Assembly (NCBI GenBank): GCA_963813715.1
Contig: CAWFAK010000011.1
Span: 1 to 59,152, forward strand
DNA: 59,152 nucleotides
Direction: 5' to 3'
Source: an uncultured Planctomycetaceae bacterium
Lineage (GTDB): Bacteria > Planctomycetota > Planctomycetia > Planctomycetales > Planctomycetaceae
This document shows positions 5,596 through 49,914 of the stretch, piece after piece (position 1 is the stretch's first letter; every line of letters begins with the position of its first letter). A program made the translations under genes and the position numbers. Under the pieces are notes generated by a model. The model worked only from the letters and a program-made list of their open reading frames with translations, searched no databases and was not told the DNA's origin.

Positions 5596-5620
5596 TATCA
5601 GCTGATAGGAGCCCCCTTTC

Positions 5621-6082
5621 ATGCCACGTCGGAAGCAGCTTGCCATCACCGAGCGACAGTTCGAAGTGCTCACGCTCCTCTGGGAACACGGCCCGCTCAC
5701 CGTCCGCGAGCTGCTCGACCTCTTGGATCGCGATCATCCCCTGCCTTACACGACGGTTCTTGGGCTGCTGCAGAATATGGAGCGGGCCAAGCTGGTGACT
5801 CACGAGGCCGAGAACCAGACGCACCGCTACCGTGCCGTGCTGTCGCGCGAAGAGGCGACCGGCACCCTGCTGACCGACTTCGTCGCCCGCTTCTTCCGCG
5901 GCTCCGCGGAGCGACTCGTGCTGGGCCTCGTCGACGCCGACCAACTCTCGGCCGACGACCTGCGGCAAATCGAAGCCCAACTGGCCCAATCCCCACAAGA
6001 AACGTCGAAGCCCTCTCGCGGCCAGAAGCCTACCCGGACCAGAAAGAAATCCCAGCCGAAGTCGAAGCGGAGACAGCCATGA
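5621..6082 (+). CDS. BlaI/MecI/CopY family transcriptional repressor
   Basis: ITERQFEVLTLLWEHGPLTVREL...LPYTTVLGLLQNMERAKLV...FFRGSAERLVLGLV; ATGA overlap with the M56 gene. Confidence 0.93.
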   Translation: MPRRKQLAITERQFEVLTLLWEHGPLTVRELLDLLDRDHPLPYTTVLGLLQNMERAKLVTHEAENQTHRYRAVLSREEATGTLLTDFVARFFRGSAERLVLGLVDADQLSADDLRQIEAQLAQSPQETSKPSRGQKPTRTRKKSQPKSKRRQP

Positions 6083-8792: not shown

Positions 8793-8951
8793 CCCAAAAT
8801 GTTCGAGCTTCGCGTGTCGTCTTCAACCTGCTCAAGAACGGTGTGTGTCGGCGAGCTGGTCACACCCTACGATTTGACCGCGCCGGCATCGAGACCCACT
8901 TGGCATAAACGCCTCGTCAAGGTCCCCGTCCATGCGGAAACGGAGGAAGCC

Positions 8952-18289: not shown

Positions 18290-18319
18290 CGGTCCGTCCA
18301 GCGAAGAACAGTGGGTTCG

Positions 18320-18408
18320 GGGTGGCACTGGCGGCTCGCCCGCCAGTGTCTTGGCCTTCTAGCTCGATCGAAAAAGAAACACTGGCGGACGAGCCGCCAG
18401 TGCCACCC
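18320..18408. repeat. Inverted REP doublet (REPIN-like)
   Basis: GGGTGGCACTGGCGGCTCGCCCGCCAGTG ... CACTGGCGGACGAGCCGCCAGTGCCACCC; each arm is itself a hairpin; lies between convergent genes. Confidence 0.85.
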
Positions 18409-18442
18409 GACAATCTCTCGGAGTGCAGGCGAGGAACCGCGC

Positions 18443-30074: not shown

Positions 30075-31214
30075 GGTCACGAAATCTCAGAAAACTGATC
30101 TTGGACGAACCGAGTTTTTGTGGCTGAATGGAGAGAGCGGATTCGGCGCGAGCGCTCTGGGCGCGCGCGGGGGTCGGCGATTGGGACCCACCGAGTCCAA
30201 AGTCCAAGGTCCAAAGTCCAAAGTCGAGTGGGACCGGACCGGACACAAATCACCCTCACCCCGGCCCTCTCCCAACCGCGAAGCGGACGGGCGAGGGAGA
30301 ATGGGACGGGACAAGTGTCCTGAGGAGCCGCGCACGCAGTAAGCGGTGCCTTTTCGCCCGCCGGTTGGGATGCTCACCGACGGGACGGGACAAGTTGTTT
30401 CACCGAGAAAACCCCGGAGAAATGCCCCCCTCACCCCGGCCCTCTCCCATCCGCAAAGCGGACGGGCGAGGGGGAAGAGGCGGCGAGGCGGGGATGACGA
30501 TCCCGGCCGGAGACCAAAAAGGATCCAGTCCCGCCGCGGTGAGGATCCTTTTTCACATATGAGGACAGGAAGAGAAAAAGATCCCCGGTGCGCGGGACAA
30601 GTTGTCCCGCCGGGTCCGCCTAAAAGTGGTCCCGCCGTGACGGTACCACCACATTTAATATAAGGGGGGCGCCGCAAAGTGGTCCCACCGACGAGAGTCC
30701 CACCGGTCAGTGTCGAACCGGTGAGCGGCGATCCGGCCAAGCAATCGGGACGGGACACGAACATCGAGTCCAAGGTCCAATGTCCAAGGTCGAAAGGCGG
30801 GACGGGATCGGAAGAGAACCCGATTGTTACCACGAAGGCACCAAGGACACCAAGAAATGCAAACCTGCTGAGTAGGAATTACTTGGTGCTCTTGGTGGCT
30901 TGGTGGTTAAAAAGTCCATCCGTATCTCGGACAGTGGACGGGACACATTTGCACCGCGCATCCGACCGGCGTCCCGTGGTTGTCTCGCCCCGTTGGGGCT
31001 TTGGGAGGTCGCGTGTTGTGGCCCTGAGATCCTGGGCCTGCGCTGCGCTCCGACCCAGGCTATAGATGTCTCGCCCCGTTGGGGCTTAAGGCGGGGCTTA
31101 GGAGGGAGGGCTTAAGAGGAGGGGGCGGACGCGATTCGTAGGGTGTCGACAAGGCCGCATCGCGGCCGCAGGCACACCATGCATGGCCGGCGGAGTAGCG
31201 GGACGGGACGGGAC
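30075..31214 (+). repeat. Composite non-coding repeat element, copy 1 (GGGACGGGAC scaffold with embedded REP/MITE-like hairpins)
   Basis: Colinear with the reverse complement of 43363-46234; no credible ORF. Confidence 0.9.
30593..30690 (+). repeat. 98-bp invariant core of the composite element, copy 1
   Basis: Exact reverse complement of 43952-44049. Confidence 0.95.
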
Positions 31215-31274
31215 TCGAGCCCTGAGTCCGGTCCGGACACATTTTGTGAGGCGGGACGACAAGCCCACGGAGAC

Positions 31275-31484
31275 TTTCACCAAGAAGACGAAGACGTTGA
31301 ACAGGAGGTAACAGAGTGAACAGAGTCAAACAGGCTGGAATCGATTGATTTCTCTGTTACCTCTGTTCCCTCCTGTTCAAAATCTTTTCGTGCTCAATCT
31401 TTGTGTCTTCGTCCCAAGAACACCAAGGTAATTCAGATCGGCTCACCGGTCTTAACTCGGTGCTCTTGGTGGCTTGGTGGTTAA
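31275..31484. repeat. Nested palindromic repeat (AACAGGAG..CTCCTGTT element inside a CACCAAG/CTTGGTG-type element)
   Basis: TTGAACAGGAGGTAACAGAG ... CTCTGTTCCCTCCTGTTCAA; a homologous copy lies at 49744-49914. Confidence 0.85.
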
Positions 31485-31684
31485 AGAATTCATTTGTATT
31501 TCTGCACACAGGACGGGAGACGTTTACCGTAAGGCAAAATAACGGCGTGCCCGGATGCTCGTCTCGCCCCACGTGTGCGCATCACTCTTTTGGCGATTGG
31601 CTGGCTGCTTCTTGCGTCCGCGCCGCGGTCCCCGCAGAATGAGGTTCCGCGGCGCTGTGCTCGGATCTTGCAGATGGCCTCTCG

Positions 31685-33220
31685 ATGCTCGCCAGGCTCA
31701 CAACTTATTCGCTGCTCGGGATCGAGGCCCTGCCGGTTGAGGTCGAAGTCGATATCTCGCCCGGGGCGCTGCCCAAAACGATCCTAGTGGGAATGGCCGA
31801 GGCGGCCGTCAAGGAGAGCACGCCGCGGATCGAGCGGGCGCTGGTCAACGGCGGCTATCAGCGGCCCGTCGATCGCATCGTCATCAACCTCTCGCCGGCC
31901 GACTTGCCCAAAGAGGCCGCGTCTTTCGATCTGCCCATCGCGCTGGGCCTCTTGGCCGCGAGCGGGCAGCTGGCCTCGACCCGGTTCGACGGCTATGCGG
32001 CCACGGGCGAGTTGGCGCTCGACGGCACCGTGCGGCGGACCAAGGGCGTGCTGTCGATGGCTTTGGCCGCTCGCCAGCAGGGCAAGCGCGGCTTGCTGGT
32101 GCCGGCCGAGAACGCGCAGGAAGGTGCCGTCGTCGAAGGGCTCGAGATCATCGCCGTCGGCTCGCTGGCCGAAGCGGTCGGCTTCTACACCGAGCAGCTC
32201 GACATCGCGCCGACCCGCTTCGAATGGGACCAGGCCCGGCACACCTTCGGCAACTACGCGCTCGACTATGCCGACGTGAAAGGCCAAGAGTCGGCCAAGC
32301 GGGCCGTCACCGTCGCGGCGGCCGGTTCGCATCATCTTCTGATGATTGGCTCGCCGGGCACGGGCAAGACGCTGCTGGCCCAGCGACTGGGGACGATCCT
32401 GCCCGACTTAATGCGGGAAGAGAGCATCGAGACGACGCGGGTATATAGCGCGGTCGGGCGGCTCGCGCCGAATCAATCGCTGATGCTGTTGCGGCCGTTC
32501 CGGGCGCCGCACCACACGATTAGCGAGGCGGGACTGGTCGGCGGCGGCAGCACGCCCGCCCCGGGCGAGATCTCGCTCGCCCATCATGGCGTGCTGTTTC
32601 TCGACGAATTGCCGGAGTTCAATCGCCGCACGCTGGAAGTGCTCCGGCAACCCCTCGAGGAAAATCGCGTGACGATTTCGCGGGCGATGGGCAGCCTGAC
32701 TTTCCCGGCGAATCTGATGCTGGTGGCTGCGATGAATCCGTGCCCCTGTGGTTACCGCGGCGACCCGCGGCGGCAGTGCAATTGCACGCCAATGCAGATC
32801 GAACGATATTTGAGCCGGATCAGCGGGCCGCTGCTGGACCGGATCGATATCCACGTCGAGGTGCCGCCGGTCCCCTTCCGCGAACTGGCGGACACGGGCG
32901 GTGGCACGACGAGCGCCCAGATGCGCGAGCAGGTCGTCGCCGCTCGCGATCGACAGATCCAGCGTTTCCACGGCGAGACGTCGAAAGCAAACGGCAAGAT
33001 GGCCCCGCCGGAAATCCGCAAGCATTGCCGCCTCGCCCGCGACGCCGAGTCCCTCTTAAAGACCGCGATGGAAGAACTCGGCCTCTCCGCCCGCGCCCAC
33101 GACAAGATTCTCCGCGTCGGCCGCACGATCGCCGACCTTGCCGGCGCGGCGGACATCGCCGCCGAGCATTTGAGCGAGGCAATCAACTACCGCACACTCG
33201 ACCGGCGGTATTGGGCGTGA
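31685..33220 (+). CDS. comM: YifB/ComM family Mg-chelatase-like AAA ATPase
   Basis: INLSPADLPKEAASFDLPIALG, GSPGTGKT, RPFRAPHH, GVLFLDELPEF, AAMNPCPCG, ISGPLLDRID. Confidence 0.95.
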   Translation: MLARLTTYSLLGIEALPVEVEVDISPGALPKTILVGMAEAAVKESTPRIERALVNGGYQRPVDRIVINLSPADLPKEAASFDLPIALGLLAASGQLASTRFDGYAATGELALDGTVRRTKGVLSMALAARQQGKRGLLVPAENAQEGAVVEGLEIIAVGSLAEAVGFYTEQLDIAPTRFEWDQARHTFGNYALDYADVKGQESAKRAVTVAAAGSHHLLMIGSPGTGKTLLAQRLGTILPDLMREESIETTRVYSAVGRLAPNQSLMLLRPFRAPHHTISEAGLVGGGSTPAPGEISLAHHGVLFLDELPEFNRRTLEVLRQPLEENRVTISRAMGSLTFPANLMLVAAMNPCPCGYRGDPRRQCNCTPMQIERYLSRISGPLLDRIDIHVEVPPVPFRELADTGGGTTSAQMREQVVAARDRQIQRFHGETSKANGKMAPPEIRKHCRLARDAESLLKTAMEELGLSARAHDKILRVGRTIADLAGAADIAAEHLSEAINYRTLDRRYWA

Positions 33221-33334
33221 CTTCGGTTATGAAAGAATTCCGTTCGACGCATTCGAAAAGAGCACGGCTGAGCTGGGACGGCGCTCAGCCGTGGCACACG
33301 AAATAAGACCCGCGAGCGGAACGAGTCCCTTACG

Positions 33335-35809
33335 TCACTGCGCGTTAATGACATGTCCATCGTTCCGCATGATCAGCCACCTGAGATCGTCCTTGATGCG
33401 GTCGGTTTGGAATGATCGGGCGGAGCCGTCCGCGAACGCGGTGTTTAAGCGTCCTTTGACGAACCCTCCCAGCTCCGGCACCGGTTTCGTTGCGTCGAAG
33501 GGGATGTCCTCGGGCTTGGTCCAGGGAATGTTACGCTTGGCTTCGATGATCATGATCGTGTTGCTCGTCCCGTCCAGGATCTCGCTGATTTTGATACCGT
33601 CGGGCCCCTCGAAGACTGAGCCGGGCCCGTCGAAGGCGAAGTATCCGCTGTTGGTCGATTTGGGATCGTCATACGGGCTGCGGAACACGCCGGGCGCTTG
33701 CGCCAGCACTTTCTTGTTGGACTCGCTGTCCCAGGGTTCGTCGAATCGATACTGGTCGTAGAGTGGCTTCTGCTCCACGAGCGGGAGCAGCTCGACTCGC
33801 CAACTGTGGGGCGTTTTGCCGTCCGGCCCCATCACGACCGCGGGCGGAAAGTGACCGTGCACGTCGTGATAGTTGTGCATCGCCAGCGCGAGCTGTTTGA
33901 GATTGTCGCGGGTTCGGGTCGCGGCGTCGGTCGGCCTGCGGCGGCGAGCGGCGTTGACGCTGACCGGGATCCTTCCGGGGCCGAGTTTCTCGAGGTCGAT
34001 GCGGTGGCCATCGTTCCGCATGATCAGCCACTTGAGCTGGTCTTTGACCTTTTCGGTCTCGAACCGTCGGGCCGATCCGTCGCCGAGCGCCGTCGCGAAG
34101 TGTCCCTTCTCGAATCCTCCCAACTCGGGCAGCGGTTTCTCGGGATCGAAGGAGATGTCTTCGGGCTTGGTCCAGGGGATGGTTCGTTTGGCTTCCACGA
34201 TCATCACGGTGTTGCTCGTTCCGTCCGTGATGTTCTGGATCCGGATTCCGTCTTTGCCCTCAAAGATCGTGCCGGGACCGACGAGAACGTAGTAGCCGCT
34301 GTTCGTCGATTTGGGATCATCGTAGGGGTTGCGAAGGCAGGCGGGCATTTGCTCGAGCACCTGCTTGTTGTTCTCGCTGTCCCACGGCTCATCCATCCGA
34401 TACTGCTTGTACAGGTCGTTCGCATCCAAGAACGGCAGCAGCTCGACTCGCCAGCTGTGCGGCGTTTTGCCGTCTGGGCCGATCAAAACCGCTGGCGGGA
34501 AGTGTTTATTGACATCGTGGTAGTTGTGCATGGCCAGCACGAGTTGCTTGAGGTGATTGAAATCCTGAGCGATCTTGGCCCGGTCTTCGATGCGGCGATT
34601 CAGGTCTTGCGCCACCTCTTCCTGTTGCTGGAGCGGAGTCTTCGCCGGTCGCTCGGCTTGATTGAACGCGACCACCACAGGAGCCGCATCTTTGCTGTCG
34701 GCTCGATCGTCGCTAGCGACGGAGCCGCGAATTCCCGCGGCACACACGGCCGCGACCAGAACGGCCGCCACGCTCAAGAACACGATCGGGCGAGAAACGT
34801 CGGCGCCCAGCGACTTGGATCGGTGCAACATTTCGATTCTCCGGACGAACGTTTTGGAATTGGGAAGAAAAGCGTTGGCCGGCCACGCGAGTGGCTGATC
34901 GGCTTGCCGCAAGGCCATCGCCGCCAGCATCGTGACGTATTTGCGTTGCCCGCCGACGACTCGGGCCGCGGCGGCGTCGGCGGCCAGTTCCTGCTGCAAG
35001 CGGAGCCGGTTGGCCAGGCCGTGCACCAGCGGGTGATAGAAGTGCAACGCGACGCCGATTTGCGCGGCGATCCACGCGGCAAAGTCGTTGCGGCGGACGT
35101 GCTCGATCTCGTGGGCGAGCACCGCCTGCCGCTCGTCATCGGTCCAATTCCGCCAGTCGGACGGAAGCAGGAGCATCGGCCGCAGCCAACCGATCGTGGC
35201 GGGCGTGCTGAGCCGCGTCGCCTCGCGGAGCTCGATCCCCTTCACGCAGCCGAGCTGGGCGCACACGACGTCGGCAAGCTCGCCCAGTCGACGGTCGGTG
35301 ACGGGGTGAGAGTTGCGGCGGTAACTGCGCACGGCGGCAAATCCGAGCGCAATTCGCACTGCCATGCCGGCGACGCCGACGAAGTAAAGCGTCGCGACGA
35401 GTCCCAGCCAGTGATCGGCCAGTACCGTCCAGAGTCGCGACGAAGAGGAGGTCGGGACAGCGGCCTCGCTGAGCGAATCGCGGGGGATCGCATTCGCGTC
35501 CACGATGTCGTCATCGAGGCGCGACTGGGCGAAGCGATCGGGAATTTCGCGGCCGGCGGGTTCGGCCTGCTGACTGTGCAAATCGGCCGGGTGAGACCAG
35601 GCCAGCTTCTCCCAACCAAGATGCCACGCCGGCCAGGGGCTGAATGCGGTTACCGTCAGTCCGGCGACCGCCAGGAGAGCGGCGACGGCCACGGAGGCGC
35701 CGGCAGCCGGTCGGCGGCGACCCAAGAGCGAACCCACGCCGAGCGCGGCGCACGCCAGAACGCTCACTTGCACCGGGCACCACAACAGAATTTGGGTGAC
35801 GGAACTCAT
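33335..35809 (-). CDS. BlaR1-like M56 metallopeptidase fused to two tandem DUF1559-like domains
   Basis: AVLAHEIEHVRRND, FYHPL, QELAADAAA; two LKQL.LAMHNYHDV..HFPPAV...HSWRVELLP...DGTSNT repeats; ATGA overlap with blaI. Confidence 0.92.
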   Translation of the reverse strand: MSSVTQILLWCPVQVSVLACAALGVGSLLGRRRPAAGASVAVAALLAVAGLTVTAFSPWPAWHLGWEKLAWSHPADLHSQQAEPAGREIPDRFAQSRLDDDIVDANAIPRDSLSEAAVPTSSSSRLWTVLADHWLGLVATLYFVGVAGMAVRIALGFAAVRSYRRNSHPVTDRRLGELADVVCAQLGCVKGIELREATRLSTPATIGWLRPMLLLPSDWRNWTDDERQAVLAHEIEHVRRNDFAAWIAAQIGVALHFYHPLVHGLANRLRLQQELAADAAAARVVGGQRKYVTMLAAMALRQADQPLAWPANAFLPNSKTFVRRIEMLHRSKSLGADVSRPIVFLSVAAVLVAAVCAAGIRGSVASDDRADSKDAAPVVVAFNQAERPAKTPLQQQEEVAQDLNRRIEDRAKIAQDFNHLKQLVLAMHNYHDVNKHFPPAVLIGPDGKTPHSWRVELLPFLDANDLYKQYRMDEPWDSENNKQVLEQMPACLRNPYDDPKSTNSGYYVLVGPGTIFEGKDGIRIQNITDGTSNTVMIVEAKRTIPWTKPEDISFDPEKPLPELGGFEKGHFATALGDGSARRFETEKVKDQLKWLIMRNDGHRIDLEKLGPGRIPVSVNAARRRRPTDAATRTRDNLKQLALAMHNYHDVHGHFPPAVVMGPDGKTPHSWRVELLPLVEQKPLYDQYRFDEPWDSESNKKVLAQAPGVFRSPYDDPKSTNSGYFAFDGPGSVFEGPDGIKISEILDGTSNTIMIIEAKRNIPWTKPEDIPFDATKPVPELGGFVKGRLNTAFADGSARSFQTDRIKDDLRWLIMRNDGHVINAQ

Positions 35810-36189
35810 TGTTGCTGCTCCCGCAGAATTTTTTCGAGAAGGGCCCGCTCCTTCGCGGTGAGTTTGCGGTCCTCGGTCAGCCGCACGAGCAAGTGTTCCC
35901 GCGAGCCGCGGAACACTCGCTTGACCAGATCGCCCAACAGGCGGCCGGACACATCGTCGAAGGTGCGGATCGGCTCGTACCGGAAGGGACGCTCGTCGTT
36001 GGTCTGCCGCACGAACTCCTTCTCCATCAGAATCCGCACGAGCGTGGCGACGGTGGTGTACGCCAGGTCGCGGCCGGCAGTGGCCAGCGCCTCGCGGACT
36101 TCGCCCGCCGTCAGCGCGCCCTGCTTCCAGAAGACGTGCATGATTTCCAGTTCGCGTTCGGTCAGTTCCGTTGCTTTGGGTCGGGCCAT
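35806..36189 (-). CDS. BlaI/MecI/CopY family transcriptional repressor
   Basis: LTERELEIMHVFW...LAYTTVATLVRIL..K...VFRGSREHLL. Confidence 0.95.
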   Translation of the reverse strand: MARPKATELTERELEIMHVFWKQGALTAGEVREALATAGRDLAYTTVATLVRILMEKEFVRQTNDERPFRYEPIRTFDDVSGRLLGDLVKRVFRGSREHLLVRLTEDRKLTAKERALLEKILREQQQ

Positions 36190-36242
36190 CGCTGCTCCCG
36201 TGTGTTCGCCAGCACGATGTTTGGTTATTTAGATTTGGTTTG

Positions 36243-36271
36243 ATAGTAGTCGTGAGATGGCGAGCCGTCAA
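36243..36271 (-). promoter_or_regulatory. Sigma70-like promoter of the blaI-M56 operon
   Basis: Minus strand TTGACG, 17-bp spacer, TACTAT. Confidence 0.7.
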
Positions 36272-36341
36272 GGATCTTTTTTCGAGAATTGTCCGCACCG
36301 ACGCTACCAACGCGCAGATGTCCAGCGACATCCGGATCCAA

Positions 36342-36370
36342 TTGACAGGTCCGGCCGATTGAGATATCCC
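36342..36370 (+). promoter_or_regulatory. Possible sigma70 promoter of sulP
   Basis: TTGACA, 17-bp spacer, TATCCC (weak -10). Confidence 0.4.
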
Positions 36371-36441
36371 TGCCGGCCCATTTCGTCTCGATTTCTCGCT
36401 GATTTCTTGGTGAAAAGAGGGCCGCTTGGCGGCCGCGTTCC

Positions 36442-38115
36442 ATGTCGCTTCCTCTGCCGAAGTCGATCCTCTGTCTTCGCGATTATCGGTTCCCCACGTT
36501 TGTCTCCGACCTTGTCGCCGGTTTGACCGTGGGGTTGGTGGCGCTGCCGTTGGCAATGGCGTTTGCCATCTCTTCCGGGGTCTCGCCGCAAGCGGGTTTA
36601 TATACGGCCGTCGTTGCCGGGTTCTTGATCTCGGCGCTCGGCGGGTCGAAGACGCAGATCGGCGGACCGACGGGTGCGTATGTCGTCGTCGTGTTCGCGA
36701 TCGTCGCTCAGCACGGCCTGGACGGACTGCTCGTCTGCACGATGCTCGCGGGCGTGATGCTCTTGCTGCTGGGGCTGACCGGGCTTGGTTCGATGGTGCG
36801 GTTCATTCCGCGGCCCGTGACGATTGGCTTTACCAACGGCATCGCCGTGTTGATCGCCAGCACCCAGATTAAGGATTTCTGCGGACTCAAGATCGACAAG
36901 ATGCCCGGGGACTTCGTCGGCCGCATGACGGCCATCGTGAGCCACCTCGACACGTACTCGGTCGCATCGCTGCTTTTGGCCGCGGCGTCGGTGATCGTGA
37001 TTCTTTGCTTTCGCCGCTTTGCGAAACGCGTGCCGGGCTCGATCGTCGCGCTCGTCGTCGCCACCGTCGTGGTCGTGATCTGGCGCCTGCCGGTGGAGAG
37101 TATCGGCACACGCTTCGGCGGAATTCCCAGCGGGCTGCCGACATTTGCTTTACCCCAATTCCACGCAAACCAGATTGTGCCACTGCTTTCACCGGCGTTG
37201 ACGGTCGCCTTGCTGGGCGCGATCGAATCGTTGATGTCGGCCGTCGTTTCCGATCGGATGAGCGGCGACCAGCACGACCCCAACGTGGAACTCGTTGCCC
37301 AAGGCCTGGCCAATATCGCCTCGCCGCTGTTTGGCGGCATTCCGGCGACGGGGGCCATTGCCCGCACGGCAACGAACATTCGCTCGGGCGGCAAGACGCC
37401 CGTGGCGGGAATGATCCACGCATTCACGCTCTTGGCCGTCCTCCTATTTGCGGCGCCGCTGGCCCAATACATCCCGCTGGCCGTGCTGGCCGCCATCCTG
37501 ATGGTCGTCAGCTACAACATGGGCGAATGGAGCGAAATCCCCAAGCTCCTCAAGATGACCTGGGCCGACATCAGCGTCTGGTTGGTGACGTTCGCACTCA
37601 CGGTTTTTGCCGATCTCAGCCTGGCCGTCGAAGTCGGAATGCTGCTGGCCGCGTGGCTCTACATTCACAAGGTGACGCGGACGACGACCGTCACGAAAGT
37701 CACGCGCGAATATGTCGAAGAAGGCCGCCTGCACATCCTGCAGGACAAGCCGATTCCCGAATACGTCACCGTCTTTCGCATTCACGGCCCATTCCTGTTC
37801 GGGGCCGCCGAGAAGCTGAGGCAAATCGTCGACGAATTGGATCAGCTGGCACCGATCGTCATCCTGCGGTTGCGCAACATGACGGCGATCGATGCCACCG
37901 GTCTGCTGACCCTCGAAGAGCTGGCCGACAAGCTGCATGCGTCGGGTCGCGAGCTGATTGTCTGCGGAGCCCGACCGCAGCCCGCCGCCTTGTTGCACCA
38001 GGCCCAGTTCGAAGCGCACATCGGCGAGCAGAATGTGTGCCCGAACATTAGTGCGGCACTCGAGCGGGCCAAGACGATTTTCACCACTCCGCGTCCGGTC
38101 CGCCGCTCGGCCTGA
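36442..38115 (+). CDS. SulP family anion/dicarboxylate transporter with STAS domain
   Basis: DLVAGLTVGLVALPLAMAFA, QIGGPTGA, GAIARTATN, HGPFLFGAA, IDATG. Confidence 0.96.
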   Translation: MSLPLPKSILCLRDYRFPTFVSDLVAGLTVGLVALPLAMAFAISSGVSPQAGLYTAVVAGFLISALGGSKTQIGGPTGAYVVVVFAIVAQHGLDGLLVCTMLAGVMLLLLGLTGLGSMVRFIPRPVTIGFTNGIAVLIASTQIKDFCGLKIDKMPGDFVGRMTAIVSHLDTYSVASLLLAAASVIVILCFRRFAKRVPGSIVALVVATVVVVIWRLPVESIGTRFGGIPSGLPTFALPQFHANQIVPLLSPALTVALLGAIESLMSAVVSDRMSGDQHDPNVELVAQGLANIASPLFGGIPATGAIARTATNIRSGGKTPVAGMIHAFTLLAVLLFAAPLAQYIPLAVLAAILMVVSYNMGEWSEIPKLLKMTWADISVWLVTFALTVFADLSLAVEVGMLLAAWLYIHKVTRTTTVTKVTREYVEEGRLHILQDKPIPEYVTVFRIHGPFLFGAAEKLRQIVDELDQLAPIVILRLRNMTAIDATGLLTLEELADKLHASGRELIVCGARPQPAALLHQAQFEAHIGEQNVCPNISAALERAKTIFTTPRPVRRSA

Positions 38116-38223
38116 CCGGGAACTGGCCCGCCTAGTCGGCCCGCCGCGACGCCGATATTCTTCCGGTCGCTGCTCGTTTCAACATGATCAGTATGATCAG
38201 AGCTGAATGATCGGAGCCGACCG

Positions 38224-38811
38224 ATGAAGTTCGCGCGATGGACCTTTGGCGTGGCCGGCGTCTATGGCGTGCTGGCGATTTTACCGTTGTATTTCTTGGA
38301 AGGCCGCATCGCCCAAGAGACTCCACCGGCGATCACGCATCCGGAGTTCTTCTACGGATTCGTCGGCGTCGGTTTAGCCTGGCAGCTGGCCTTTCTGTGC
38401 ATCGCCTCCGATCCGGCTCGCTATCGACTGATCATGCTTCCGGCCGTGGTGGAGAAATTCTCGTTTGCGATCGCCGCGGCCGTGCTGTACTTCAACGGTC
38501 GACTGGCGGCGACGATGCTCGGTTTCGCCACTCTCGATGCCCTGTTGGGCGTGCTGTTCCTTGTCGCCTATCGTAAAACGGCCAGTTCCTCCATCACGTC
38601 GGCAGCAGGCGAGCGAGAGCTGACCGCCCGCGTCGGACTCCAGTCCATGGCCCGACTGGCAACTCAGCAGGGTCTCGACGCCGAGATCGAGCGGCTCGCC
38701 GTCGCCAAGGAAGAGGCCGTAGTCAAGCAAGACTTTCGGCACGCAGCCTGGCTCCGCGACCGGGGCGACGACCTGAAAAAGTTGAAAGAATCGTGGCCTC
38801 GACACGAGTGA
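38224..38811 (+). CDS. Four-TM membrane protein with a C-terminal UvrB/UvrC (UVR) motif
   Basis: Four hydrophobic segments, then IERLAVAKEEAVVKQDFRHAAWLRD. Confidence 0.75.
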   Translation: MKFARWTFGVAGVYGVLAILPLYFLEGRIAQETPPAITHPEFFYGFVGVGLAWQLAFLCIASDPARYRLIMLPAVVEKFSFAIAAAVLYFNGRLAATMLGFATLDALLGVLFLVAYRKTASSSITSAAGERELTARVGLQSMARLATQQGLDAEIERLAVAKEEAVVKQDFRHAAWLRDRGDDLKKLKESWPRHE

Positions 38812-38949
38812 GTGCCGCGGACCTCGTACAGCGACATCGCTCCTTGAAGTTGCTCTTTGTCGCGGACGGGTCGTTCGCCATACTCCGCCGGTCGAGCGGT
38901 CGTCTGCTGTCCCGATCTCGCACTTCCGCGCCGCGGAGTTTCGCTGGCC

Positions 38950-40378
38950 TTGAATGTCGTTTCTCTGCCACAGACCCGTCGTCCTGCGGCCCACTTGGTG
39001 GGCATCTGCGGCTCCGGGATGAAGTCGCTCGCGGGGCTGTTGCTCGATCGGGGTTGGGCGATCAGCGGCTCTGATTTGAATCCTTCCGAGTCGTGTCTCG
39101 AGTGGCTGCGGACGCGGGGCATCGCGGCACAGGCAGGGCATGCGGCCGAGAACGTGCCGCGCGGCACGGAGCTGGTGATCTATAGTGCCGCGGTTCCGGC
39201 CCAGAACCCGGAACGAGTGGCGGCCCGCGCCCGCAGTATCCCCGAGCGATCGTACAGCCAGATGTTGGGCCAGTTGATGCGGCAACACCAGGGCGTCGGC
39301 ATTGCCGGAACTCACGGCAAGAGCACGACGGCGGCGATGACCGCCACTGTGCTGCGCGCCGCCGGCCGCGAGCCGACCGCTTGTGTCGGCGCGGAGTTGT
39401 GCGCGCTCGGCGTCGGCGGCTGGGCCGGGTCGGGTGATTTGTTCGTGGCCGAATGCTGCGAGTTTCGCCGCAGCTTCCTCGATCTCAATCCAACTTACGC
39501 CGCCATCCTCAACATCGAGGCTGATCACTTCGATTGCTTTCAAAACCTGGGCGAAACTGCGCGAGGCCTTTCGTCAATTTGCCTCTCGCGTGCCGAGGGA
39601 AGGACTGCTCGCCGTTCGCGCCGATTGTCGAGCTGCCCTGGAGGCGGAACAGGCGTCGGCCGCGCGCATCTCGCCGGCGCGAATTGAAACGTTCGCGCTC
39701 GCTCCGCCGGCAACCTGGTTTGCCGAGAACTTGCGACCGACCGCGGACGGAATCGCGTTCGACGCCGTCTATCGGGGCCAGGTATTCGGCCGCTTTGCGC
39801 TCCGCGTGCCCGGACGACACAACGTGCTCAACGCGCTGGCGACGCTCGCGCTCTGCCGGGCGATCGGCGTGTCGAGCGCGGATCTGCAGGCCGGGCTGGC
39901 CGAGTTTCGGGGAGTTTGCCGCCGCTTCGAGCTGTTGGGCACACCGCGGGGGCTGACGTGGATCGACGACTTTGCCCATCATCCGACCGAAGTGCGGGCC
40001 ACGCTCGAGGCGGCTCGCCAGCGGTTCGGCCGGCGACGCGTCTGGTGCCTGTTCCAGCCGCACCAGATCTCGCGCTTGCGGGCCCTGCGGGGAGAGTTTG
40101 CCAAGAGCTTCGAGCGGGCCGACCAGGTTTTGATTGCGCCAGTCTTTGCGGCCCGGGAAATTCGCGGAGGCGAAGCCGACTCGCTCTCCCAAGAATTGGC
40201 AGCCGAAATCGCCGGCAGCGGCCGGCCGGCGCGGTTTTGCCCCGACCTTGACCGGATGGTGGCAACAATAGACGATGAAGCCCGCGCGGGCGACGTCGTG
40301 ATTTCGATGGGCGCGGGGGACATCAACCGGGTTTATCATGCCTTTACTCGACGCCTTCAAAGAAATCTCGCTTCTTGA
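38950..40378 (+). CDS. murC: UDP-N-acetylmuramate--L-alanine ligase (frameshift near 39560; start uncertain)
   Basis: HLVGICGSGM, IAGTHGKSTT, NIEADHFD, PGRHNVLNA, DDFAHHPTE, FQPH, MGAGD. Confidence 0.92.
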
Positions 40379-41216
40379 CGAACCGCTGGCCCCGTACACC
40401 TGGATGAAAGTCGGCGGTCCCGCGCAGTTCCTCGTCCGCCCGCGAAATCCCGACGAGCTGCTCGAAGTCGTCCGTTTTTGCCACGACGAGCAAATCCCCA
40501 TCCGCGTGCTGGGCGGCGGCTCGAACATCCTGGTGCGGGACGAAGGCGTCAGCGGAGCCGTCCTGCAGCTGGTGGACGACTCGTTCGGCCAGATCACCGT
40601 CGACGGCACAACCGTGCGGGCCGGAGCCGGAGCACTCCTCCCCGAGTTGATCTCGCACTCCGTGAAGGCCGAGCTGGCTGGCCTCGAAACCCTATCCGGC
40701 ATCCCGGGTACGATCGGCGGGGCGCTGCGGGGCAACGCGGGCGGACGCAGCGGCGACATCGGCCAGTTCGTCGAAAGCGTCACCGTGATGAGCGCCACGG
40801 GCGAGATCTCGACCCGGAAGGGAAATGACCTCTGGTTCGGGTACCGCGCGAGCAACATCGACGAACTCTTGATCCTGGAGGCCACTTTCGCGCTGCAGCC
40901 GGGCGATACGCAGGAAATCACCCGCCGCATGCGCAAGCTGTGGATCATGAAGAAGGCCACGCAGCCCCTTTCGTTCCAGTCGGCCGGCTGTATCTTCAAG
41001 AATCCGCGGGGGTTAAGTGCCGGCTCGCTGATCGAACAGGCGGGCCTGAAAGGCATTCGAGTCGGCCAGGCGGAAATCAGTGACCGCCACGCGAACTTCA
41101 TCGTCACGCATCCCAACGCCAAGTCGGACGACGTACTGCGTCTGATCGACCTGGCCCGCTCCCGGATCGCCGAGCAGTTCGGAGTCGATCTGGAGCTGGA
41201 AATCAAAATCTGGTAA
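40338..41216 (+). CDS. murB: UDP-N-acetylmuramate dehydrogenase
   Basis: VGGPA, LGGGSNILV, GIPGTIGGA, SAGCIFKNP, HANFIV, LELEI. Confidence 0.96.
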   Translation: MPLLDAFKEISLLDEPLAPYTWMKVGGPAQFLVRPRNPDELLEVVRFCHDEQIPIRVLGGGSNILVRDEGVSGAVLQLVDDSFGQITVDGTTVRAGAGALLPELISHSVKAELAGLETLSGIPGTIGGALRGNAGGRSGDIGQFVESVTVMSATGEISTRKGNDLWFGYRASNIDELLILEATFALQPGDTQEITRRMRKLWIMKKATQPLSFQSAGCIFKNPRGLSAGSLIEQAGLKGIRVGQAEISDRHANFIVTHPNAKSDDVLRLIDLARSRIAEQFGVDLELEIKIW

Positions 41217-41414
41217 GAGGATGCCCCCGCCGCCCCCTCCGGGTCGGCCCCTCCGTTCGCGCGGGCTTTGTCCGCCGCGATCGGCTTCGACCAGTTCGCG
41301 CACTTCCCTGGTGACGCGCTCGAGCGGTCGACGACGGGGCGAAGCGTCACTCGCTTCCCCAGACTGGCGGCCAAAAACATTTTGCGTACACCGGACCGCA
41401 AGGAGGCGGTCGGC

Positions 41415-42425
41415 ATGAGGTCCAATTTCGCCGAGTCGCAAACGTATCGCATCGCCGTGCTTTCCGGCGGCGATTCCGACGAACGAGCCATCAGCCTGGA
41501 AAGCGGCCGTTGCGTGGCCGAGGCCCTGCGTGAGCGCGGGCACGAGGTGACGCTGATGGATCCAGCCGCCGCGCCGCCGGAAGCCGCCCTCTTTCGCGAC
41601 GTCGACGCCGCCTTCCTGGCGCTCCACGGTCGCAACGGCGAGGACGGCACCATTCAAGGCCTGCTCGACCGGATGGGTGTGATCTTTACTGGCAGCGGTG
41701 CCGAAGCGTCGCGCTTGGCCTTCAGCAAGTCGGCTTCGAAAGAAAGATTCTTCCAAACCGGCGTGCCGACGCCCGCCTATGTGCTCGTGCACGAATCCGA
41801 CGGCGTGCAGCGCTGCCGCGAGCTGGCCGATCGCATCGGCTTTCCGCTGGTGGTGAAGCCCGACTCGCAGGGTTCGAGCCTCGGCGTGACGATCGTGCAC
41901 TCGGTCGACGCTCTGCCGCAGGCCCTTTCACACTGCTTCCGTTACGACTCGTTCGCCCTGTTCGAGCAGGCCGTCACCGGCACCGAATGGACGCTCCCGC
42001 TCTGCGATGACGAGCCGCTGCCCTTGATTCAAATCTCGACGCCGCGCGAATTCTTCGACTTCACGGCCAAGTACGAAGATCCGGCCACGCAGTATCGCTT
42101 CGAGTTCGCGGAGAGCCGGGCGGCCATTTCGTCCCTGGTCGACGCCGGCTGCCGCGCGGCGCGGGCCATCGGCACGAAGGGACTGGCGCGGGTCGACCTG
42201 CGTCTCGACCACGAGGGTCGCCCGTGGGTGCTCGAAGTCAACACGATTCCCGGCTTCACCGATCACAGCCTGCTGCCCAAGGCGGCCGTCCACGCCGGCC
42301 TGGGCCTGGGCGAGCTGTATGAACGGTGCCTCGAACGTTCGCTGATCGCGGCTTGCAGTCGGCGCTCGATTCTCCAGGGACCCCATCGGTTACCGGCATG
42401 GCGCGCCGCGTCAAAAAGAGCCTGA
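41415..42425 (+). CDS. ddl: D-alanine--D-alanine ligase
   Basis: AGGAGG RBS; GGDSDERAISLESG, LHGRNGEDG, VVKPDSQGSSLGV, LEVNTIPGFT. Confidence 0.95.
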   Translation: MRSNFAESQTYRIAVLSGGDSDERAISLESGRCVAEALRERGHEVTLMDPAAAPPEAALFRDVDAAFLALHGRNGEDGTIQGLLDRMGVIFTGSGAEASRLAFSKSASKERFFQTGVPTPAYVLVHESDGVQRCRELADRIGFPLVVKPDSQGSSLGVTIVHSVDALPQALSHCFRYDSFALFEQAVTGTEWTLPLCDDEPLPLIQISTPREFFDFTAKYEDPATQYRFEFAESRAAISSLVDAGCRAARAIGTKGLARVDLRLDHEGRPWVLEVNTIPGFTDHSLLPKAAVHAGLGLGELYERCLERSLIAACSRRSILQGPHRLPAWRAASKRA

Positions 42426-43331
42426 AGGATTCGGACTCCGACGTCCTCTTCGTCGAAGAGGAAGAGACGAGTCTCCTCGCGCTGGATCCTCGGCCCGACC
42501 ATCGTGCTGGCGGTGATCGGGTGCATCGCGGCCTACTTCCTGTTCCCCAAGGCCCTGGAGTGGCTGCCCGATCTGTCGCATCGTCCGGAATACGTGCTCA
42601 AGCCGGACGACATCCGCTTCACCGATGCGCCGCCGTGGGTGCCGCGGACGTTCATCAAGCAAGTGGCCCGCGAAGGAGGCCTGCCGGACGACCTGTCGAT
42701 GCTCGATGCGAAGCTCGTCGACAACGTGGCGGCCGCGTTCCAAAAGCATCCGTGGGTCGATCGCGTCGTCAGCGTGCAGAAAGAATTCCCGCACCGCGTG
42801 ACGGTCGTGCTCGAGTACCGCAAGCCGGCTGCCTTCGTCGTCACGGCGACGGAACACTTTGCCGTCGATAAACACGCGGTGCTCTTGCCGCCGCCCGATT
42901 TGCCGCCGGCCGAGGACGAATTTCCGCTGATCACGAACGCCCGCTCGTCGCCCCCCACCGAAGCGGGCAGCACCTGGCACGACCGCACGATCGAAGACGC
43001 CGCCAAGATCGCCGACGCGCTCGGCCCGTCGTGGAAAAAGCTGCAGCTCAAAGCGATCGAGATCCCCAACCTGCCGGAAGACGCCCGTCCCGACGACGCC
43101 GTCTACGCCCTGCGAACCACGGGCGGCTCGCGGATCATCTGGGGCCGCGCCCCGGGCGGCGACCGCCCCGGCGAACTGTCGGCCGAACAAAAGATCGGCC
43201 GCATGGAAGAATACCTGGCCCGCAAAGGCGGCTTCACCGACCCGCAAGGCCCACTGGAAATCGACATCCGCCACTGGAAAGAAATCACCGCCCGCCCCCT
43301 CGGCGACGACGGCACGCGCACTCGCGAGTAA
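42398..43331 (+). CDS. ftsQ: FtsQ/DivIB-like bitopic membrane protein (frameshift near 42480)
   Basis: Position after ddl; short cytoplasmic N-terminus, one TM, POTRA-like HPWVDRVVSVQKEFPHRVTVVLEYRKP, terminal IDIR. Confidence 0.7.
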
Positions 43332-43951
43332 CGTCCGCGGTTTCTTCTCTCTTCTTCTCTTCCCCCTCGCCCAGTCCGCTGGGAGAGGGCCGGGGTGAGG
43401 GCGAATTTTCTCCGGGTCCCAATCTCCGGTCCCGTCCCGTTATTCAGCCGGCAATGGTGTGCCTGCGGCCGCCAGGCGGCCTTGTCGACACCCTACGAAT
43501 TCGCGTCCGCCCCTCCTGCCTTAAGGCCCAACGGGGTGACACACCTAGAGCCTGGGTCGGAGCGCAGCGCAGGCCCAGGATCTCAGGGCCACAACACCCG
43601 ACCTCCCAAAGCCCCAACGGGGCGAGACAACCACGGGACGCCGGTCGGATGCGCGGTGCAAATGTGTCCCGTCCATTGTCCGAGATACGGATGGACTTTT
43701 TAACCACCAAGCCACCAAGAGCACCGAGTAAATTCCAGCAGCTTTGCATTTCTTGGTGTCCTTGGTGTCCATGGTGGTAACAATCTGGTTCTCTTCCGAT
43801 CCCGTCCCGCCTTTCGACCTTCGACTGCGTGCGCGGCTCCTTAAGTCCGGTCCGCATTGCCAACGAAAGTGTCCGGACCCGACCCAATCCCGACCGATTG
43901 CCGGGCCGGATCGCCGCTCAACGGATCGCCGCTCACCGGATCGACGCTGAC

Positions 43952-44049
43952 CGGTGGGACCACTTTGCGGCGCCCCCCTTATATTAAATGTGGTGGTACC
44001 GTCACGGCGGGACCACTTTTAGGCGGACCCGGCGGGACAACTTGTCCCG
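43952..44049 (-). repeat. 98-bp invariant core of the composite element, copy 2
   Basis: Exact reverse complement of 30593-30690. Confidence 0.95.
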
Positions 44050-44421
44050 GCGCGCGGGGATATTTTTCTCCCTCCATCCTCTCTGTGAGAAGCTCCAGTC
44101 CCGACCCGTTTTTCGGGTCGGAGTGACGGGCGATTTCGCCGGGTTTTCTCGATGAAACAGCGTGTCCCGTCCCGCGCGGCCGGCAGTCCTGTCGGGCAGG
44201 CTGTGCCTGCCGTCCCGCACGCATATCTGGGACTTGGCTCCCCGTCCCGATTGCGAAAATGTGTCCCGTCCCGCGCCCCGCGTCGGCGGCAGGCAGAGCC
44301 TGCCCTACAAATGCCGACGGCCCCCCTCGCGGGAGCGGGATTCCAATCCCGTCCCGTTTGTCGGGTCGGGGCGACGGGCGATTTCGCCGGGTTTCCTCGG
44401 TGAAACAACGTGTCCCGTCCC

Positions 44422-45934
44422 GAATGGCACTAACTCAAGCCGGAAGGAGTTGGCAGTTGGAAGTTTATGTCGGGTGAGGAGCGTGACGGAATGCGTCTCT
44501 GAGGAATCCCGGCCTCCTGCGAGAATGAGGTTGCTAAACGACCCATTTCCACAGGAGGCCAAGGATGGCGCCATTTATCGAGTCTGTTTTGGAGCAGGTC
44601 AAGGGGGATGTGACCGAGGCGCTTTCGCCCGAGCGGATCGAGCAGATTCTGTCGCGAACTCAATCACGTGTGGCGCGACTGCACACTCAATCCGATCACC
44701 ACCGTCTATGCGTTCCTGCGGCAGGTCTTGGCGGGCAACATCGCCTGTGATCACGTGCCCCATCTCCTGGATCTGGATGTCACCGGCGAGGCCTACTGCA
44801 AGGCCCGCGCGCGATTGCCGCTGGAACTCTTCCAACGGCTGATGGAGGGGGTGGCGCGTGCTGTTGGTGCGCAAGTGCCTAACTGCTGGCGAGGTCATCG
44901 TCTTTGGCACGTGGATGGTTCTGCCTGTTCGATGCCCGACACACCCTCGCTGCAGGAGGCCTTCGGGCAATCGGGGGCTCAGCGGCCCGGCTGTGGATTT
45001 CCGGTGGCCCGTCTCCTGACACTGTTTGATGCCAGCACTGGCTTTCTCTTGCGGGTGCTGCCAGCTCCTTTGCGGTCGCATGACCTGTCGCGGGTTCAGC
45101 GCGTGCACGAGGCCTTTCAGCCGAACGACGTGGTCGTCGGCGATCGGGGATTCTGCTCCTACGCACATCTGGCACTGCTCAATTTAGCCGGCGTTTTTGC
45201 TGTGTTTCGCATCCATCAAGCGACGATCGTCAACTTCCAAAAAAGGCGGCCTTACTCGCCGCAGAAGCGTGCGAAGAATGTCCCACGCGTGAAGGGACAA
45301 CCGACGTCCCGCTGGGTCCAGTCGCTGGGCCGACACGATCAAATCGTCGAGGCGTTCAAACCGACCCAACGGCCATCGTGGATCACCCCGGAAGACTTCG
45401 CGCGGCTGCCCGAATCCCTGCTCCTACGGGAGCTGCGCTATCGCATCACTCAACGGGGGTTTCGAGTCCGCCAGGTGACCCTCGTGACGACGCTCTTGGA
45501 TCAACGACGTTACCCGGCCGTCGAACTGGCCAACCTCTATCTGAATCGCTGGCAGATCGAGACGAATCTCAGGCATCTGAAACAAACGCTCCGCATGGAC
45601 GTGCTGCGCACCAAGACAGTCGACGGGATTCACAAAGAGCTGGCCATGTTCGCCATCGTTTACAATCTGGTGCGCTGCGTGATGCTGCGTTCGGCAAAAC
45701 GCCAGCGCGTGCCGGTGACTCGGACCAGCTTCATCGACGCCCAACGACGACTCTGCCATGCCCCGCTCAACGCGGCCCCCAGAAATCTGATCGTTGTTCC
45801 CCACCGCCCAGGTCGTTGCGAGCCACGCGCCTCTAAGCGACGACCAAAACAATACGATCTCATGAACAAACCACGTCGCCAACTTCAACAAGCCCTGATC
45901 CACAAACAAGTAACGCCTTAAGTTAGTGCCATTC
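44422..45934 (+). mobile_element. IS4 family insertion sequence with terminal IRs and an 11-bp target duplication
   Basis: IRs GAATGGCACTAACTCAAG / CTTAAGTTAGTGCCATTC; flanked by TGTCCCGTCCC at 44411-44421 and 45935-45945. Confidence 0.93.
44565..45921 (+). CDS. IS4 family DDE transposase (frameshift near 44660)
   Basis: AGGAGG RBS; AYCKARARLP, HVDGS, GDRGFCSY, YLNRWQIETNLRHLK (YREK motif). Confidence 0.93.
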
Positions 45935-46226
45935 TGTCCCGTCCCGAGTCCCGACCGGCCCGGGCCGGGCCGGCGGACCAAAGGCGCCGGCTTCCTGTCG
46001 CCCCGTCTCGGTCCGCGGGCGAAAGGCACCGGCTTACTGCGTGCGCGGCTCCTTAATACGTATCCCGTCCCACCCGACTTTGGACGACGCCTTCGGCGGA
46101 CTTCGACTTTGGACTCGCCCAGTCCCAATCGCCGCCCCCCGCGCGCACCGAAACGTCGCGCATCGATCCGCTTCCTCAATTCAGCCACAAAAACTCGATT
46201 CGGCCAAGATCAGTTTTTCGGAGTTT

Positions 46227-46366
46227 GGGTGACCGGACAACTCGTTGTCCGGGTCGCGCGCGACAAGAGGCGGCACTTGAACGTTGGGCCACGTCCGCAG
46301 CTATCACCTTGTTGGAGCAGCCTCTTGCTGCTTCGCAGCCGGGACAACGAGTAGTCCCGGCCACCC
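46227..46366. repeat. 140-bp REPIN/MITE-like element, copy 1
   Basis: GGGTGACCGGACAACTCGTTGTCCGG ... CCGGGACAACGAGTAGTCCCGGCCACCC; direct repeat of 47485-47625. Confidence 0.9.
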
Positions 46367-46385
46367 GACGGGCCGAATGCGGTTC

Positions 46386-47386: not shown

Positions 47387-47484
47387 TGCTCGGTTCCTGC
47401 GGGAAGCGATTTTATTTGGGACGTCTTAGCCCAGCAAGATGTCGTCCTACAGTCGCACGTTGGGAATGCCTCTGTCGGTTCGGC

Positions 47485-47625
47485 GGGTGGCCGGACAACT
47501 CGTTGCCCGGGTCGCGACGCGACAACAGGCGGCACTTGAACGTTGGGCCACATCTGCAGCCATCGCCTGGTTGGAGCAGCCTCTTGTTGCTTCGCAGCCG
47601 GGACAACGAGTTATCCCGGCCACCC
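47485..47625. repeat. 141-bp REPIN/MITE-like element, copy 2
   Basis: GGGTGGCCGGACAACTCGTTGCCCGG ... CCGGGACAACGAGTTATCCCGGCCACCC. Confidence 0.9.
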
Positions 47626-47742
47626 AACGATACCAAGAGCCCTCGCTCACCAGCTTTTTGCGCGAGGAGTCATAAAGACTTGCGCAATAAAAAGTTGGTG
47701 CTACACATAGTCTCAATCGTAACCACACGAAAGGAGACGGAT

Positions 47743-48624
47743 GTGGAACACCAACTCTGGAAGGCGATTTTGATCCTTCTCAAACAGGCGAGCAAGCGTC
47801 GTCGGTGCACGCGGGAACGATACGGGGCAGACGACATTGTGCGGGTTTGGCTGTGGGCCGTTCTGCACGGTCGGCCTGTGTCCTGGGCGTGCGATCTTCG
47901 GAACTGGCCGCTGCATGAGCGTCGCCGCAAATTGCCATCGTCGAGCACCATGTCGAGACGACTGCGGAGTGCCGAGGTCCAGCAAATGCTGCAAGAGATC
48001 GAACGTTCTGAACTGGCTCCTCGTGGGAACAAGCCCCTGTATTGGATGATCGATGGCAAGCCTCTGCCGATCGGCGGTTGCTCGAAAGACCGGCAAGCTG
48101 GGTACGGCCGCGCCGCGGGCTGCAAAGCCAAAGGGTACAAGCTACACGCGGTGGTCGGCAGCGATGGCTCGATCGCTGCCTGGCGCGTGGCTCCCATGCA
48201 AAAGGATGAGCGGGCGATGGGGCGGCGGATGTTGAAGCAAGCGGCTGTGCAAGGGTACTTGCTCGCCGATGCAAATTTCGACTCGAACCAGTTACACGAC
48301 GTCTGCCTCGAACGCGGCGTGCAACTGGTGGCACCTCCGCGTTACGGATTTGGCCGTCGCCGTGGCCATCGGCGTCAGAGTCCCGCTCGGCTGCGATCTC
48401 TTGAACTGCTCTCGAATCCGCAAAGCTCGTTCGGCCGTGCCCTCCATCAAGAACGTAACGCGATCGAACGCTACTTCGGATACTTGAGCACTTGGAGCGC
48501 CGGATTGCAGGCACTGCCCGCTTGGGTTCGCGGCCACCGACGCGTCCACCGCTGGGTGCAAGGCAAGCTCATCTTTACCGCCTTGCGACGGCGATGCCAA
48601 AAAACGACTTACGTCACGAGATGA
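47743..48624 (+). mobile_element. DDE transposase (DDE_Tnp_1 type, IS5/IS982-like; element ends not resolved)
   Basis: AAGGAG RBS plus GTG; PSSSTMSRRL, IDGK, GYKLH, LADANFDS, RNAIERYFG. Confidence 0.85.
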
Positions 48625-49743: not shown

Positions 49744-49914
49744 TTTCACCACAAAGGCACAAAGGCACTAAGAAGGCGAAGACGTTGAACAGGAGGAAAC
49801 AGAGTGAACAGAGTAAGACAGAGTCGAATTGACTGATTTCTCTGTTGCCTCTGTTTCCTCCTGTTCAAAACTTTCCTGCTCAAATCTTTGTGTCTTCGTC
49901 CCTTTGTGGTGAAA
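49744..49914. repeat. Nested palindromic repeat, homologous to 31275-31415
   Basis: Outer TTTCACCACAAAG / CTTTGTGGTGAAA; inner TTGAACAGGAGG / CCTCCTGTTCAA. Confidence 0.88.

Follow-up and report, generated by a model that had tools for sequence, protein, structure and literature searches.

Two inverted copies of a long, modular repeat array lie between the genes of a 59,152-nucleotide (nt) stretch of DNA (the window; contig CAWFAK010000011.1, assembly GCA_963813715.1) from an uncultured Planctomycetaceae bacterium. On balance, we propose that both copies are non-autonomous derivatives, devoid of an open reading frame (ORF), of a solo element that would consist of a promoter, a leader, one gene and an origin-like tail, wherein the gene encodes an AAA_25 ATPase with a C-terminal winged helix-turn-helix (wHTH). 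Sequence comparison argues strongly for one part of this proposal, namely that arrays of this kind derive from the promoter and the tails of several subfamilies of solo AAA_25-wHTH genes. A literature search, with subscription papers and supplements outside its scope, found no description of such an element or its arrays, and both are apparently undescribed.

The intergenic regions containing copy 1 and copy 2 are colinear reverse complements of each other, as originally predicted. Their longest exact match is 98 bp (30593-30690, the reverse complement of 43952-44049), a longer shared block (30786-31061 vs 43549-43821) retains 263 identical positions over 276/273 nt, and a terminal block, T, and a GTTTCACCGAG block are common to both and inverted relative to each other. 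The original prediction of an invariant 98-bp core is true between the two window copies, but the core varies at other copies in the genome; copy 1, placed at 30075-31214, is present there but extends on to ~31525; and the region 43363-46234, taken as purely intergenic, holds within copy 2 an element of the insertion sequence (IS) family IS4 with a transposase ORF. The scaffold motif GGGACGGGAC, a direct 10-mer, recurs at 52-401 bp rather than at the predicted 70-270 bp, with one tandem pair and the IS4 insertion as exceptions. Many of the slots between scaffolds, which are exchangeable as had been suggested, are of a repetitive extragenic palindromic (REP) nature that had been overlooked. The parts of the two copies are as follows.

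30088..31525, + strand: copy 1, a putative ORF-less derivative with a promoter block, tail/origin modules and REP hairpins.
30088..30140, + strand: terminal block T of copy 1, homologous to the promoter region of solo AAA_25-wHTH genes, with a left box (30091-30103), a -35-like TTGGAC (30101-30106), a 17-nt spacer and a -10-like CTGAAT (30124-30129).
30194..30352, + strand: REP-like modules, namely a GTCCAAGG repeat (30194-30227), a CCCTCACCCC hairpin (30253-30301) and GGAGCCGCGCAC (30323-30352), with scaffolds at 30230 and 30303.
30381..30423, + strand: module M, the scaffold plus the GTTTCACCGAG block, also in the 3′ tail of the AAA_25 genes at C5, C6 and C7.
30428..30476, + strand: CCCTCACCCC REP hairpin, an IS110 target elsewhere in the genome.
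30499..30588, + strand: module K, origin-like, with GATCCCC repeats, matched by a hidden Markov model (HMM) from gene-linked modules of other genomes.
30593..30690, + strand: module C, the 98-bp core, with GGGWC/GWCCC inverted pentamers around a T/AT-rich TTTAATATAAGGGGGG centre.
30786..31180, + strand: shared REP-like hairpin block, with a ACCACCAAG pair (30827-30911), a GCCCCGTTGGGG pair (30980-31090) and a GTAG-type part (31136-31180).
31200..31525, + strand: end of copy 1, with a tandem scaffold (31200/31205), module P (GTCCGGTCCGGACAC, 31226-31245), REP pairs (31291-31386 and 31414-31485) and a last degenerate scaffold at ~31510.
43357..46220, - strand: copy 2, a putative ORF-less derivative interrupted by IS4.
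46169..46220, - strand: terminal block T of copy 2, identical at 34/36 nt to T at the orthologous site of related genomes G003 and G009.
44381-44422 and 44132-44174, - strand: two M modules of copy 2, with REP-like slots between them (44132..44422).
43952..44049, - strand: module C of copy 2, an exact match also hit by the gene-linked HMM.
43360..43821, - strand: shared REP block and terminal CCCTCACCCC hairpin of copy 2.
44422-45934, + strand: IS4-family element of 1513 bp in copy 2, with terminal inverted repeats (TIRs) GAATGGCACTAAC and a transposase ORF (44668-45921).

The parent was found by clustering the genes near array loci, which yielded a family carrying the scaffold and module M in its 3′ end. 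The genome of the window (G000, 7.49 Mb; contig labels refer to it unless another genome is named) has 11 full-length loci of this gene, five of which stay in one frame, and also remnants that consist of the winged helix only. The protein matches Pfam AAA_25 and, weakly, MarR_2; its model displays a RecA-type core, with a best target-normalised TM score of 0.59 to RSF1010 RepA, and a C-terminal winged helix (Z 10-12), and a nuclease or primase domain was not found in it.

Both ends of the arrays can be traced to this gene. At the 5′ end, the T left box lies upstream of the genes at the same distance to a TATAAT-like hexamer, with at least 10/13 positions matching in 9/29 gene loci and in 0/600 control upstream regions, and the similarity between the 89%-identical genes at C5 and C6 ends upstream at a T-type left box. 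At the 3′ end, the gene tails differ by subfamily, with GATCCCC repeats (K), GTGGTCC (C), TTGACCC (J) or GTTGACC (N), while another subfamily is extended at the C-terminus by YDxGTGxFV, encoded by the scaffold GGGACGGGAC itself. Module C follows the winged-helix wing in genes of the C subfamily (e.g., C9:146755), module K follows the stop codon in the K subfamily, and module P, where it occurs in gene tails, encodes the peptide motif VRSGHF. The tails of different gene subfamilies are identical with modules K, C, M, P and N. HMMs built from the gene-linked modules of other genomes only match 47 of the 68 T loci in G000, with all 68 matches co-oriented, and in the window they match 30499-30588 (K), 30594-30690 and 43952-44048 (C). 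Two or more tail-module types occur at 15 T loci, and K precedes C in 15/15 cases. At locus L203 of G006, a scaffold run and an N module come straight after a promoter of the gene type. Miniature inverted-repeat transposable elements (MITEs) keep both ends of their parent, lose its gene and outnumber it; the arrays are likewise gene-less with both ends of an autonomous parent, but no TIR or target duplication surrounds them and the parent encodes no transposase.

The modules are thus far best read as predicted origins of the element that probably bind its protein. The protein-binding site of the original prediction is probably right in this sense and not in that of a chromosome-architecture site, since the orientation of the arrays lacks a replichore bias (25 vs 19 and 31 vs 23, in a draft genome whose skew is weak) and hence the leading-strand polarity of KOPS- or Chi-like motifs. 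Several points weigh against the proposal at this stage. A gene directly behind the CTGAAT form of T was found at 0/68 loci in G000 and 0/15 metagenome loci (mostly short), and therefore the link between T and the gene is one of homology. On a quick tree, genes with the same type of tail group together (10 changes vs 19.8 when shuffled), in line with the proposal, but shared descent alone can give this; the seven genomes with the system are kin, and since kin share tails, the matching of tails with winged helices is no proof of binding.

Genome-wide, the arrays form a polar and dispersed family. The scaffold occurs 363 times in G000 vs ~25 expected, and its co-orientation, as predicted from the window, holds for all arrays, with 0/74 multi-motif clusters of mixed orientation. 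Rather than two copies, an iterated profile finds 68 terminal blocks, with an exact scaffold within 2.5 kb downstream of T in 45/68 and upstream of T in 0/68. These 68 loci, together with orthologous arrays in other genomes and near-identical contigs within the array from public runs, exclude a simple segmental duplication or a misassembly. Element-specific modules are co-oriented in array matches (M 99/99, C 32/32, K 50/54, D 13/13). In 40 arrays, local alignments start on the scaffold in 135/556 cases (random mean 45, maximum 65) and end on it in 70/587 (random mean 45, maximum 63); the support that this lends to joins between modules at the scaffold is descriptive, because alignments tend to run through a shared motif. 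Genome clusters, fast module turnover and these joins support the predicted family, which is dispersed and combines a scaffold under constraint with slots that can be exchanged. A hidden peptide was considered as well and rejected: M has a mild third-position bias, the scaffold spacing modulo 3 (42/30/26) and the M frame (13/8/7) are unconvincing, and gene tails use two different frames to translate the scaffold.

That the arrays encode a large structured non-coding RNA, one of three candidates in the original prediction, and that it is transcribed from T, is highly improbable. T does have promoter spacing and faces the array; against this, no gathering match to Rfam was found in the window, covariation analysis of T (34 sequences), C (32) and K (50) gave zero compensatory pairs on either strand, and module order and content differ between orthologues. 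Array-like contigs were present in two RNA runs, but as assembled contigs only they do not show transcription. A non-autonomous mobile element, of which the parent gene has now been found, is the best fit of the three candidates.

A leader between promoter and AAA_25 gene appears structured at C5:272560-272690, C6:37270-37410 and C7:106690-106860 and on C9, C10 and C13. Across 13 sequences it is conserved as a long terminal hairpin plus a U-rich tract (consensus energy -35.6, one two-sided pair change) and has no Rfam match; it is a candidate attenuator or copy control. Rfam gave one sub-threshold REP-like match (Acido-Lenti-1) among nine gene loci. A mini gene for the winged helix alone, which has a promoter of its own and a C/K-like module, lies at C5:698307-698585 (L026), and tandem repeats of winged helix plus N module follow the C14 gene (C14:86497-87419); both are possible intermediates or repressors.

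At least eight hairpin types are mixed in the arrays, and the core modules are not REP hairpins. This bears on the possibility that the arrays are of the type of bacterial interspersed mosaic elements (BIMEs) or REPINs, made by a REP-associated tyrosine transposase (RAYT, an HUH nuclease of the Y1 type) acting on REP hairpins with gene modules as passengers, or cutting single strands made by the helicase. G000 has eight Y1_Tnp matches, a Y1-like gene lies within 3.5 kb at 4/44 gene loci (one confirmed), and the available portion of one report describes cleavage and recombination of single-stranded BIMEs by TnpA-REP (PMC3333891). However, joins map to the scaffold and not to REP feet, several generic REP types are random in orientation and found mostly outside arrays (co-oriented in U 21/41, V 9/18 and H 5/10), and no single REP family defines the arrays, all of which makes this explanation very unlikely. 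The arrays share intergenic hairpin clusters, IS targeting and a helper gene that is kept vertically and subject to purifying selection with the REP/BIME/REPIN systems, as far as the accessible parts of their descriptions go (PMC3733652, PMC3333891), but the helper here is an ATPase instead of an HUH nuclease, and many unrelated REP types ride as passengers. REP clusters in Planctomycetes are themselves already published, according to the available text of the source (PMC3733652). One Y1 (RAYT-like) gene lies at C3:72459-72668, ~400 bp upstream of an AAA_25 gene.

The system is restricted in its distribution. T occurs in 6/11 other genomes of the genus, one of soil planctomycetes, and in 0/29 genomes outside it, and the gene subfamily, T and the scaffold excess go together in the same 7/12 genus genomes: the seven T-bearing genomes have 3-16 gene matches and 98-557 scaffolds, the other five 0-1 and 10-19. 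In a phylum sample, 4/300 other genomes matched the gene at 1e-40 (four candidates scored per genome), and viral contigs gave one distant protein match and no match to the core pattern. G026, of another family, holds a separate multi-copy solo AAA_25-wHTH lineage, 85-90% identical over ~2 kb and with REP-laden tails; on its contigs C2, C3 and C5 (L078-L086), end units are duplicated between REPs, one of the nine loci (L084) being unrelated in DNA.

Recent multiplication of the gene is visible on one chromosome, where six gene copies 91-96% identical over ~1.75-1.8 kb have different flanks and a sharp 5′ edge, differ by pN 0.007-0.016 vs pS 0.14-0.17 (nonsynonymous and synonymous differences per site), the mark of purifying selection among paralogues, and have tails with the end unit repeated behind REP clusters. 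The arrays likewise change between relatives. The site of copy 1 lacks an array in G003, G007, G009 and G010; that of copy 2 is occupied in G002, G003, G007 and G009, with different module content in each, whereas G010 has an empty site there. Orthologous arrays vary in the order of their modules as well as in content. In G002, the flank found ahead of copy 2 in G000 stands in front of the copy-1 array, with the left flank at a distance of 250 kb; arrays mark synteny breaks between close genomes. Separately, a comM-like gene (window 31685-33220) is split by insertions of 6.5 kb in G003 (C1:440684-447252) and 8 kb in G009 (C10:75790-83933), at different points.

Other data point to slow movement. 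Most G002 T loci are common to G000, and among the 24/26 fetched, an empty site was found in G000 at only 2/24, one of them inside a REP pair; therefore, movement is slow or old, which weighs against an actively spreading element. The age and sharing of most loci suit a passive mosaic repeat instead, wherein modules from decayed gene ends would be mixed into arrays that grow, like those of the NIME type, only through host recombination together with gene conversion and slippage, all at the short scaffold, with no role for the ATPase. Genome-specific variants of T, as from homogenisation, are in keeping with it, and so are the opportunistic IS4 and IS110 insertions and the long pure tandem scaffold runs (C17:898566-899277, with 16 exact motifs, and L203:1050-1400). 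It leaves unexplained the strict polarity with T always 5′, the K-before-C order, the intact origin-like modules, and the young dispersed gene copies with a sharp edge, and we consider it unlikely.

Selection on genes in place is a further difficulty for a purely selfish model, which does not require it: orthologous genes in place are under purifying selection (pN/pS 0.04-0.13 in four usable pairs, with the comM control and C5a left out as misaligned and without a housekeeping control). This selection, T kept at 34/36 nt at the orthologous copy-2 site while the flanking genes are 79-80% identical, and a strand-corrected third-position GC skew that changes sign several times along the 1.2-1.5 Mb contigs C5 and C17 would fit domesticated chromosome sites, in which the genes would serve the host as initiators or as restart helicases, with the modules, spread over the chromosome, as auxiliary origins or as sites where they load. 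Nevertheless, the genome has dnaA, the system is missing from five of the 12 genomes of the genus, some relatives have empty sites, and skew flips are also expected from rearrangement at repeats; domestication is thus distinctly unlikely.

What the parent may be is suggested by its distant relatives. Below ~40% identity, 23 of the 35 relatives scanned carry a fused DnaB-N, Prim-Pol, PriCT or primase zinc-ribbon domain, and one further relative has an NrS-1 polymerase domain; those with visible DNA context adjoin integrase, excisionase-like or terminase genes, with iteron-like repeats around a palindromic centre after the gene. Because these relatives are primase-helicases beside integrases, the parent looks like the Rep-ori unit of a satellite that has lost primase and integrase but still multiplies. 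No partner gene recurred within 3.5 kb of the 44 gene loci except shadow frames, orthologous neighbours and the Y1-like gene, and no recurrent integrase, primase or helper-interference partner was found there or at the G000 loci.

A close parallel is the Rep helicase of Staphylococcus aureus pathogenicity islands (SaPIs), whose C-terminal winged helix, in the available parts of two reports, binds opposed iterons on either side of an AT-rich stretch that comes immediately downstream of the gene (PMC9371898; bioRxiv 10.64898/2026.10.17.759575). Like SaPIs and other phage-inducible chromosomal islands, the parent has the predicted domain layout of an ATPase plus C-terminal winged helix, its gene is directly followed by opposed short repeats around a short AT-rich centre, and the repeat sequence varies with protein type. 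Unlike them, it has a RecA fold (AAA_25) instead of the SF3/MCM type of SaPI Rep, lacks primase, integrase and packaging genes, has a module of ~95 bp vs 300, and has many chromosomal copies and gene-less derivatives; binding here is predicted. RSF1010 RepA, an SF4 helicase, is the closest fold (target-normalised TM 0.59 and 0.54 for PDB 1olo and 1nlf), but shares only 16-19% identity, lacks the winged helix and belongs to a plasmid with RepB/RepC. The neisserial intergenic mosaic element (NIME) arrays, as described in the accessible part of their source (PMC1797815), also alternate a short junction repeat with spacers that vary, are dynamic between strains in how many spacers there are and how these are ordered, take up IS insertions opportunistically and offer a mobile enzyme its target at the junction, but the NIME junction is a dRS3-type 20-bp inverted repeat, whereas the junction here is a direct polar 10-mer, and the present arrays are headed at the 5′ end by a fixed promoter block, with modules that go back to a single gene family. 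The arrays thus resemble NIMEs in junction and spacer and MITEs in both parent ends, but fail the defining sequence features of both, and of satellites.

For the spread of the arrays, we lean somewhat towards a helicase-driven route. The protein would bind the iteron-like pentamers through its winged helix and load itself as a helicase, like SaPI Rep; the loaded helicase could open or locally re-replicate DNA at the tail modules; and host recombination at scaffold and REPs may join this DNA elsewhere, copying whole elements and duplicating the 3′ end with flanking REP DNA. Gene-less copies would keep the promoter end and gather the origins of several helper subfamilies, thereby widening their helper range. 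REP enrichment upstream is clear for the genes (5/11). Against such a route stand the weak REP enrichment upstream of T (6/68 vs 4.4%), the AT-rich centre of ~15 bp vs 102 bp in SaPI5, and the catalytic step of integration, for which no TIR, target-site duplication or partner recombinase was found at T/array ends or at the six young gene copies.

The arrays also serve as dedicated targets of an IS4 and an IS110. The inner element of copy 2 has a DDE transposase (Pfam DDE_Tnp_1; NCBIfam NF033592, IS4, above cut-off), TIRs and a direct 11-bp duplication of scaffold at 44411-44421 and 45935-45945, as befits the IS4 family. All six full IS4 copies in the genome are flanked by scaffold, five with a direct 11-bp duplication, and 8/9 IS110 copies lie within one REP hairpin type (CCCTCACCCC), the ninth in scaffold. 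The scaffold flanks of the IS4 copy at C8:69255-70765 run in opposite directions, which suggests a rearrangement at the IS.

Elsewhere in the window, a ~140-bp repeat with inverted ends lies just upstream of copy 2 (46233-46371 and 47481-47629, 91% identical), three copies of which precede the G002 array (L067). Stand-alone REP pairs occur at 18318-18410 and 49744-49914, the second nesting one REP type within another, like 31278-31410. An IS982/IS5-like transposase fragment, multi-copy in the genome, lies at 47986-48624, and 3427-11698 holds 3-4 diverged tandem gene copies spaced by ~2.9-3.5 kb. The gene at 48786-49298 matches a branched-chain aminotransferase only over the first 123 of ~292 positions and looks split, possibly by a sequencing frameshift.

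The origin of bacterial mosaic repeat arrays is largely open, and here the modules are traced to a parent gene, its promoter and subfamily-specific tails; as they are traceable to gene subfamilies, matched protein-DNA pairs are at hand for testing. We tentatively suggest a class of selfish element whose sole product is a self-loading RecA-fold helicase and which, without transposase, integrase or reverse transcriptase, would spread through the chromosome by mini-origin firing plus host recombination. Such an element might have arisen at least twice in Planctomycetota, and its gene-less parasites might stack helper origins, drive rearrangement and possibly provide extra chromosomal origins. If the helicase alone does drive copying, the element would move by a route that belongs to none of the DDE, HUH, serine/tyrosine recombinase and reverse transcriptase classes.

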